In this document: in pieces, positions 18,067 through 19,110 of the stretch | How positions within the stretch are numbered: position 1 is the stretch's first letter | How the letters are laid out: each line of letters opens with the position of its first letter | NCBI GenBank assembly: GCA_900553985.1 | Contig: USFW01000001.1 | Location: forward strand, 11,523-75,522 | Length of the DNA stretch: 64,000 nucleotides | From: an uncultured Clostridium sp. | GTDB taxonomy: Bacteria > Bacillota > Clostridia > TANB77 > CAG-508 | Reading direction: 5' to 3' | Notes under the pieces: model-generated | Seen by the model: the letters and a program-made list of their open reading frames with translations, nothing else | Databases searched by the model: none | What the model was told of the DNA's origin: nothing | Made by a program: the position numbers and the translations under genes

Positions 18067-18205
18067 GATAATTCATTTTTCTAAAAATTTTCATTAAAAG
18101 TGATAAGATGTGCATTTTTGATATTTACAGCAAGTTGAAGGCGTACGAGGGTACGTCGAAAGTTGATGTAAATATCGAAAATGTGCAGATTATTGCTTTT
18201 AATAC
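18067..18205 (-). repeat. Structured ~135-nt repeat unit, copy 1, in the rpsG-fusA spacer
   Basis: A long imperfect hairpin, TGTGCATTTTTGATATTTACA ... TGTAAATATCGAAAATGTGCA, encloses the GC-rich palindromic core GAAGGCGTACGAGGGTACGTCGAAAG. The unit is tandemly duplicated (copy 2 follows immediately). Confidence 0.7.
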
Positions 18206-18340
18206 TAATTTTTTCTTAAATTTTGATTAAAAATAGTAAGATGTGCATTTTTGATACTTTCAGCAAGTTGAAGGCGTACAAGGGTACGTCGAAAGTTGAT
18301 GAAAGTATCTAAAATGTGCAGATTGCTGTTTTTAATCGAA
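18206..18340 (-). repeat. Structured ~135-nt repeat unit, copy 2 (tandem to copy 1)
   Basis: Same architecture as copy 1. Stem positions differ from copy 1 by compensatory changes (GATATTTACA/TGTAAATATC versus GATACTTTCA/TGAAAGTATC). Flanking sequence is also duplicated. Confidence 0.7.
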
Positions 18341-18343
18341 ATT

Positions 18344-18814
18344 TTACCATTTATAGTGAGCAAAAGCTTTATTAGCTTCAGCCATTCTATGTGTATCTTC
18401 TTTCTTCTTGAATGCTCCACCATTTCCATTAACAGCATCAATTAATTCTCCAGCTAATTTTTCAGCCATAGTTTTTTCATGTCTGTTTCTAGCATATGAT
18501 ACTATCCATCTTAATCCTAAAGTTTGTCTTCTTTCTGGTCTAATTTCTAATGGAACTTGGTATGTAGCACCACCAACTCTTCTTGCTTTAACTTCAAGAA
18601 CTGGCATTACATTTTCTAAAGCTGCTTCAAAAACTTCTAAAGGATTTTTTCCTTCTTTTTCTTTTATGATATCAAATGCATCATATACTATTTTTTGAGC
18701 AACTGATTTTTTACCATCCAACATTATGTTGTTTACTAATTTTGTAACAACTTTACTGTTATATATTGGATCTGGTAATACATCTCTTTTTGCTATATAT
18801 CCTTTTCTTGGCAC
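18344..18814 (-). CDS. rpsG: 30S ribosomal protein S7
   Basis: 156 aa, [21 protein letters not shown]...; full-length S7. Confidence 0.97.
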
Positions 18815-18984
18815 TATTCTTCCCTCCTTAAATTATTTAAATTATTAATGCTTCATAAAAGCATTTCGGTACTCTGAAAAGTTTTACTTTTGTTTACTTT
18901 TCCGCATAGTGCTTTATAATCTATCTAAATTTAAGTACCTTAAGTTTAGTAAGAGTACAAGCACTAACTTTATTTGCTAAATTC

Positions 18985-19110
18985 CTATCTCAAAAAAATT
19001 GAATAAATTAGGTATATTGTGCAATTTTGATATTGGTTTCAAGCTGAAGGCATACGAGTGTACGTTGAAGTTTGAAAGCAATAGCGAAATTGTGCAAGAT
19101 GCCTGATTTA
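18985..19110 (-). repeat. Structured repeat unit, copy 3 (diverged), in the rpsL-rpsG spacer
   Basis: TGTGCAATTTTGATATT...CAAGCTGAAGGCATACGAGTGTACGTTGAAG...GAAATTGTGCAAGAT has the same arm and core arrangement as copies 1 and 2 with G-U-compatible substitutions. The rpsL-rpsG spacer is unusually long at 305 bp. Confidence 0.6.

Follow-up and report, generated by a model that had tools for sequence, protein, structure and literature searches.

Palindromic repeat units in the str operon spacers of an uncultured Clostridium sp. fold preferentially on the strand antisense to the mRNA and share a hairpin tip with repeats in other gut and rumen bacteria

[quoted passage not shown] REPs, which are palindromes of 20–40 bp that carry an unpaired tag, GTAG or CGTC, at one end, occur in many phyla under 20 bp from the 3' end of the upstream open reading frame (ORF), between unidirectional or convergent ORFs, frequently provide the stop codon of the ORF, and have stems with G·T pairs and a short motif kept across phyla (PMC3733652). 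Here we describe three repeat units in the str operon of an uncultured Clostridium sp., within a 64,000-nt stretch of contig USFW01000001.1 (assembly GCA_900553985.1, positions 11,523 to 75,522; hereafter the window, numbered from its first letter). Their stop-codon placement and foldback structure match the known small palindromic repeats, as their TA-type ends may do, and they were therefore filed as ERIC/REP-like rather than as an RNA regulator of str. That the units are a non-autonomous, non-coding palindromic insertion element of the bacterial MITE/ERIC/REP kind is the reading we favour, with confidence and doubt about evenly balanced.

An earlier note on this DNA had reported three structured repeats of about 130 nt in the rpsL-rpsG and rpsG-fusA spacers (305 and 292 nt), which was borne out by repeat, inverted-repeat and covariance-model evidence. 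A direct-repeat search of the window showed that both long spacers are filled by three units with a period of 133 nt; two copies are in tandem and 85% identical (18075-18207 and 18208-18340), and the third (18984-19116) is 63% identical. Every unit is one end-to-end foldback, an inverted repeat with 52–54-nt arms, with the TGTGCA...TGTGCA arms and palindromic core as described in the note. The sequences quoted there are correct, but they are plus-strand sequences and thus antisense to the minus-strand operon, which had gone unnoticed. A covariance model of the element (R1), which sets the unit boundaries (Table 1), matched the three units at 118–137 bits (E 1e-28 to 1e-32) in a search of the window, and the core motif occurred three times in the window at ≤3 mismatches vs. 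0 expected from shuffles. Neither BLAST nor an unfiltered search with the model, a check that the note had proposed, turned up a fourth copy in the 64-kb window, and the model also matched family members in related loci. In unit C the apical helix is weakened by two tip substitutions (GGCATAC...GTACGTT), of which the G>A change disrupts a pair that relatives keep intact.

The units resemble ERIC/IRU in size, end-to-end fold, location in transcribed spacers and 3' ends, strain variation and possibly TA ends. They share no sequence similarity with it, however, as unit A gave no match at E≤1 in a sensitive blastn search of 5,426 complete E. coli genomes; moreover, the present family spans Firmicutes, Actinobacteria and other taxa, has an invariant 24-nt tip, and its copies in an AT-rich Clostridia lineage are confined to translation operons and always antisense. 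ERIC itself reportedly has a conserved central inverted repeat, as described by Hulton et al. in 1991. Like REPs, the units adjoin or overlap the stop codons of upstream ORFs, have wobble pairs in their stems and keep a short motif across phyla. In contrast to REPs, the present unit is a single 115–130-nt foldback whose conserved part is the paired tip, the CGTC in this tip is base-paired with GGCG, and no REP-associated tyrosine transposase (RAYT) was seen at the loci surveyed. REP doublets (REPINs) are said to make hairpins of about 100 nt, according to Bertels and Rainey in 2011. The units also resemble bacterial MITEs, being non-coding foldbacks of 115–130 nt that form one long stem-loop, with filled and empty sites and copy-number differences between relatives. 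Whereas the Correia/RUP-type families have conserved terminal inverted repeats and tens to hundreds of dispersed copies in both orientations, the present family has a conserved centre, few copies (3 in 64 kb), and a fixed site and orientation.

In the units, base pairing is kept up on just one of the strands; this is the plus strand, antisense to the str mRNA. The calculated RNA folding energies of units A, B and C were -54.8, -58.3 and -52.4 kcal/mol on the plus strand vs. -29.2, -30.4 and -24.0 kcal/mol on the mRNA strand, with z-scores against shuffles of -8.7 to -11 and -3.5 to -6.7, respectively, and DNA folding parameters reproduced the plus-strand preference. About seven G·U pairs per unit, among them the self-pairing UGUGCA/UGUGCA, form on the plus strand only, which also holds GA/GA (tandem G·A) and GAA/GAA internal loops. 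The fold of the mRNA strand is weaker because these G·U pairs and loops turn into A·C mismatches (about seven per unit) and pyrimidine loops.

The role of pairing was further evaluated in an alignment of 26 units of the AT-rich Clostridia lineage. This alignment gave a 48-pair hairpin with compensatory double changes at 31 of the 48 pairs; 94.8% of cells were paired vs. 77% after shuffling, a value equalled by none of 500 shuffles, and slid-register controls gave 36–44%. The covariation score was 0.494 vs. 0.17 in shuffles and was also reached by 0/500. These results support the selection on secondary structure suggested in the earlier note, and its compensatory stem differences were right in substance (ATTTAC/GTAAAT in unit A, ACTTTC/GAAAGT in unit B). 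Furthermore, the aligned units contain 168 G·U cells vs. 11 A·C or C·A cells, and pairing is therefore 94.8% on the forward strand vs. 82.2% on the mRNA strand. Mutation bias was rejected as the source of the G·U excess, as the plus strand is G-poor across the window (GC skew -0.16 to -0.31) and deamination of the exposed non-template (coding) strand would be expected to yield the opposite mismatches. With mutation bias ruled out, selection for pairing works on the strand antisense to the str mRNA.

In the AT-rich lineage (GC 26–32%), each copy found lies in an intercistronic spacer of a translation operon, antisense to the genes, at eight junction types: rpsL-rpsG, rpsG-fusA, fusA-tuf, rpsQ-rplN, rplN-rplX, rpsZ-rpsH, rplF-rplR and rplJ-rplL. 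At all of these junctions the mRNA-sense 5' end of the first unit is found at, or extends over, the upstream cistron's stop codon, and the distance from stop codon to core is 44–54 nt for the first unit of every junction examined; an independent count gave 47–54 nt in 19 of 22 loci. The palindrome frequently takes in the TAA, and the element ends in TAAAAT...ATTTTA. All matches in 167 kb of related loci share one orientation, and no copy was found outside translation-operon spacers in these 167 kb or in the 64-kb window.

The number of units varies between strains. The comparison of spacers with relatives proposed in the earlier note showed units shared by close strains in variable number and an empty site in a more distant relative: among strains 97–100% identical in rpsL, rpsG and fusA, the rpsG-fusA spacer may hold three units or two, or else two of which one has diverged strongly, while the more distant relative has an empty spacer of 57 nt. 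Together with the eight junctions and the truncated copies (L011 and L010), these copy-number differences support the note's third suggestion, an invasive small mobile element. At rplN-rplX, the empty site reads TTA TAA TAAAATGG and the filled site CTT TA[element]TAA TAAATAAG, a pair consistent with insertion at the stop codon's TA(A). A second TAA or TAG at the distal end was present in 15 of 23 units vs. 35% in controls, which is suggestive only, since TA...TA is itself palindromic. Unit C diverges by about 3% between close strains (96.9% identity), against 0–1.7% for the adjacent rpsG leader (98.3–100%), and its tip shows differing G>A changes across several strains; the stem substitutions between strains mostly preserve forward-strand pairs.

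Two further observations concern the history of these spacers. In L006 (metagenome-assembled genome [MAG] C017_56, 3643-5786), rpsL, unit C and the rpsG leader are 99–100% identical to the window, while rpsG is 88% and fusA 81% identical and the 57-nt rpsG-fusA spacer is empty; this pattern points to a recombination breakpoint in the operon or a chimeric bin. At the start of the fusA-tuf spacer of the window (15930-15966, minus strand), TAAAATAAGATTTTGATTAAAAAAATC follows the fusA stop codon and resembles the unit terminus AAATTTTGATTAAAAA. It may be a remnant of a lost unit, although the covariance-model resemblance is not significant. A relative, L017, has a full unit at the fusA-tuf junction.

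Table 1. Positions of the str operon genes, repeat units, tips and adjoining stop codons in the window, and of cores in two Bifidobacterium-type loci
Feature	Position	Strand	Remarks
unit A	18085..18212	+	~115-nt foldback plus short flanks; fusA-proximal member of the tandem pair, rpsG-fusA spacer; R1 127.3 bits (+) vs. 64.2 (-); DNA fold -30.4 (+) vs. -19.5 (-)
unit B	18218..18345	+	tandem copy; mRNA-sense 5' end adjoins rpsG stop codon; R1 136.7 bits (+) vs. 71.9 (-); stop codon-to-core distance 50 nt
unit C	18994..19121	+	diverged, 63% identical to A; mRNA-sense 5' end adjoins rpsL stop codon; R1 118.4 bits (+) vs. 58.9 (-); stop codon-to-core distance 50 nt
tip of unit A	18137..18160	+	GAA-GGCGTAC-GAGG-GTACGTC-GAA
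tip of unit B	18270..18293	+	GAAGGCGTACAAGGGTACGTCGAA
tip of unit C	19046..19069	+	GAAGGCATACGAGTGTACGTTGAA; degenerate
rpsG stop codon TAA	18344..18346	-	proximal edge of the A/B array; putative insertion site
rpsL stop codon TAA	19120..19122	-	proximal edge of unit C; putative insertion site
rpsL	19533..19120	-	
rpsG	18814..18344	-	
fusA	18051..15967	-	
tuf	15760..14558	-	
Bifidobacterium-type locus L026	cores at 5252, 7000		
Bifidobacterium-type locus L028	core at 5916		

The tip of the hairpin is shared far beyond this lineage. A 24-nt sequence, (Y)GAA-GGCGUAC-N4-GUACGUC-GAA, is invariant in more than 130 loci of gut and rumen Clostridia, Bifidobacterium and other taxa. A scan of one genome per species (GTDB species representatives) with the pattern GAAGGCNTACNAGNGTACGTNGAA returned 14 loci, of which part are close relatives with the same flanks; the others come from Bifidobacterium, a Ruminococcus MAG and further Clostridia MAGs, with unrelated flanks, yet they again form a long hairpin. 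A metagenome scan allowing any tetraloop returned at least 120 loci, mainly from human gut and rumen, and the two scans together gave 88 distinct instances among the matches listed. The 7-bp helix GGCGUAC/GUACGUC, which includes a G·U pair, is constant over all 88 of these instances, while the tetraloop varies freely; below the helix, YGAA on the 5' side faces GAA on the 3' side in an internal loop, and eight stem positions beyond the tip are 74–91% paired despite differing sequences. The flanking stems are lineage-specific, wholly different between lineages and covarying, and the hairpin measures about 105–115 nt in each sub-family. The forward strand, which bears GAAGGCG, folds better in 85 of the 88 listed members, with means of -59.5 (forward) vs. 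-31.5 kcal/mol (reverse) in the AT-rich lineage. Copies from one metagenome or lineage are more alike than orthologous copies across lineages.

Outside the AT-rich lineage the genomic setting is less strict. Among the listed distinct loci of other lineages, 19 of 51, several of them orthologous, have the end of a long ORF within 65 nt on the antisense side, vs. 3 of 51 on the forward side, and the neighbouring genes are ordinary ones (araA, araD, ldh, ahcY and pntB). In Bifidobacterium-type loci (Table 1), araA and araD each terminate in a QH-stop (CAG CAC TGA) from the outer stem of the element, and in this arabinose operon a unit in antisense orientation follows each of two consecutive genes. 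The rumen copies are distant from stop codons and often in sense orientation, and some Bifidobacterium copies are also in sense orientation. One sub-family, with for example L031, has an A-run and a U-run on its flanks, like a bidirectional terminator. In the sub-family of L013 and L014 (Eubacteriales MAG) and L002, intrinsic terminators delimit a region of about 170 nt that holds the hairpin, with extra conserved stretches on the 5' side (GCAGAAAU) and 3' side (AUAGCAAA and UUUCAACC); this region could be a stand-alone transcription unit.

No family described in Rfam or the open-access literature searched accounted for these sequences. Rfam 15 gave no matches in the window at gathering thresholds, and a permissive scan of the window returned plant and animal microRNA-hairpin noise only. 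In 25 loci spanning all sub-families, Rfam matched nothing on the element and only tRNAs and one purine riboswitch elsewhere. In addition, the element was not found in phage, plasmid and viral-contig collections, searches of the open-access literature with the core as a text string and by topic returned no description of it, and a 2024 review of MITEs makes no mention of Clostridia, Bifidobacterium or ribosomal operons. Several other identities were considered and rejected. A small peptide gene is contradicted by stop codons arising from the variable loop (TAGT, TAAA, TGAA) in several copies. Likeness of GUACGAG..G to the sarcin-ricin loop, to a k-turn, to a hammerhead core or to domain V of group II introns, judged by eye, was discarded because the tetraloop is free and the internal loop is YGAA/GAA, which is the wrong geometry.

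Since the best fold lies opposite the mRNA, the units seem to be mobile DNA that is tolerated, and not an RNA switch acting in the str operon. If so, the element would spread through a single-stranded foldback, as DNA or RNA, of its forward strand, which an enzyme may recognise at the invariant tip, and insertion at TA or TAA would regenerate the stop codon. Selection would then purge insertions that harm coding, coupling or mRNA integrity, such as one that would create an almost perfect RNA duplex of 50 bp in the sense orientation. The survivors in operons that are essential and tightly coupled would be those exactly at the stop codon with the weakly folding complement in the mRNA; the str transcript would thus traverse three moderately stable hairpins, any effects on decay or coupling probably being secondary.

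Several points weigh against an insertion element. The copy number per genome looks low, and the conserved part is the centre rather than the termini, which is the opposite of a classical transposon-derived MITE. A TA/TAA target duplication is inseparable from the palindrome itself, and the pair-preserving substitutions between strains suggest constraint in place or gene conversion instead of free decay. No transposase or other partner was found in the window and 134 listed loci besides one IS110-family gene in L123. Random transposition plus tolerance also leaves unexplained why copies in the AT-rich lineage are restricted to translation operons, and three rivals therefore stay alive, namely a role in the mRNA, an antisense polarity and a signal in single-stranded DNA (ssDNA). 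For an element of this kind, the 24-nt centre shared across phyla, the few copies, the exclusivity to translation operons and the orientation placing the weak strand in the mRNA are all unusual. In L123 (1229-2853), the IS110-family ORF (1490-2476) lies between a reverse unit (core 1229) and a forward unit (core 2830), and a partial 5' arm is present at about 2600-2700. The IS110 transposase was rejected as a general partner, as it lies next to units in L123 only among the 134 listed loci.

The rival that survives best, though we consider it improbable, is that the units act in cis on the sense strand of the str mRNA, with the terminating ribosome opening the hairpin and thereby tuning decay, processing or coupling of the upstream cistron. 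The units are necessarily co-transcribed, the mRNA hairpin still beats shuffles, and both the strict distance between stop codon and core and the exclusivity to translation operons in the AT-rich lineage would suit such a role, for which ERIC at gene 3' ends in Yersinia offers a precedent (PMC2229807). However, the pairing, the G·U wobbles, the tandem G·A and the GAA/GAA loops all favour the other strand, and the element stands beside unrelated genes (araA, araD, ldh and ahcY) in other phyla. Terminator-like sites are absent from the units on both strands, the AU-rich stem bases being followed by no proper U-tract. Moreover, units come and go among near-identical strains, several of which have a mutated unit C tip. 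The attenuator or processing site in the str mRNA proposed in the earlier note thus finds no support, given the selection for pairing on the opposite strand, the lack of a terminator-like site and the dispensability of units between strains, although the units may have a secondary effect on mRNA decay or translational coupling of the sort shown for ERIC in Yersinia (PMC2229807).

Autoregulatory leaders of ribosomal proteins, such as the S7 site in the str operon, are likewise structured RNAs in the spacers of ribosomal protein operons. Such leaders act on the sense strand at a fixed orthologous position and mimic rRNA, whereas the present units fold best antisense, are spread over eight unrelated junctions and differ from strain to strain. 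A hairpin, AGUGCUUGUACUC...AAAGCACU, and a second small hairpin lie in the remainder of the rpsL-rpsG spacer (18815-18993, minus strand), and this region is a better candidate than the units for the S7 autoregulatory leader of rpsG.

A bolder reading, to which we give little credence, is that the tip is the recognition module of an undescribed, widespread nucleic-acid-binding system acting on a single-stranded hairpin, and that it was recruited in AT-rich gut Clostridia as a strand-polar element at the stop codons of ribosomal-protein and elongation-factor cistrons. Such an element could fold strongly in antisense RNA or on one strand of the DNA while being deliberately weak in the mRNA, and it could protect or tune the most highly expressed operons, which would make the units a new functional class and not junk insertions.

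We regard as quite unlikely an antisense function, in which the units are strand-polar insulators that fold strongly only in antisense transcripts and block or destabilise antisense entry into highly expressed cistrons, while the sense RNA polymerase meets a weak hairpin only; in a variant, they would give rise to a small antisense RNA with a tip bound by a conserved factor. Consistent with this are the forward-strand preference in the listed members, the antisense orientation of all AT-rich-lineage units relative to the operon genes, and the excess of stop codons on the antisense side in other lineages; in addition, these operons are the most highly transcribed, and the L031-type sub-family has its flanking A-run and U-run. 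The AU-rich stem base without a proper U-tract, the dispensability of units between strains and the sense orientation of rumen and some Bifidobacterium copies argue against it. A forward-strand promoter is also not conserved: most junctions have none upstream and several have no room for one, which makes an antisense RNA gene in place unlikely. The sole plus-strand promoter-like match in the window (18893-18920) lies within the conserved rpsG leader hairpin.

A signal in ssDNA, with a hairpin on one DNA strand that a universal protein of replication or repair would recognise (such as a primosome-assembly or restart site or a topoisomerase site), is very improbable: although DNA folding parameters give the same strand asymmetry, the cross-phyla tip would suit a universal partner, and these highly transcribed operons are co-directional with replication, the folding strand here is the leading-strand template and less exposed as ssDNA, the distribution across genomes is patchy, and the replication-strand explanation was rejected since orientation outside the AT-rich lineage is not predicted by local GC skew (of 20 GC-rich loci, 8 have a negative forward-strand skew, as do 3 of 10 mid-GC loci).

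The window contains one other palindrome near this operon. At 14400-14497, immediately behind the intrinsic terminator of tuf (about 14515-14560, minus strand), there is a perfect 29-bp inverted repeat (TGATTTTGGGGTCGGAGACAAAAATCAT / ATGATTTTTGTCTCCGACCCCAAAATCA); just upstream of it is a partial direct copy (GATTTTGGGGTCG), and its folding energy is -58 kcal/mol (z -9.6). This inverted repeat bears no relation to the str units and may be another palindromic element; a weak covariance-model match at 14384-14510 was set aside as this different palindrome.

If the palindromic insertion element proposed here is real, several phyla of gut and rumen bacteria have in common a hairpin element for which Rfam and the searchable literature gave no match. 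The conservation of its 24-nt tip exceeds that of most regulatory RNAs, which implies a partner, probably horizontally shared, either a transposase-like enzyme or a host factor. The units would account for the abnormally long str spacers, could be used as strain-variable markers, and would be a source of false 'structured RNA' calls in ribosomal operons. The AT-rich lineage would furthermore provide a clean natural experiment on the ways in which palindromic insertions are tolerated or exploited by operons that are essential and translationally coupled.

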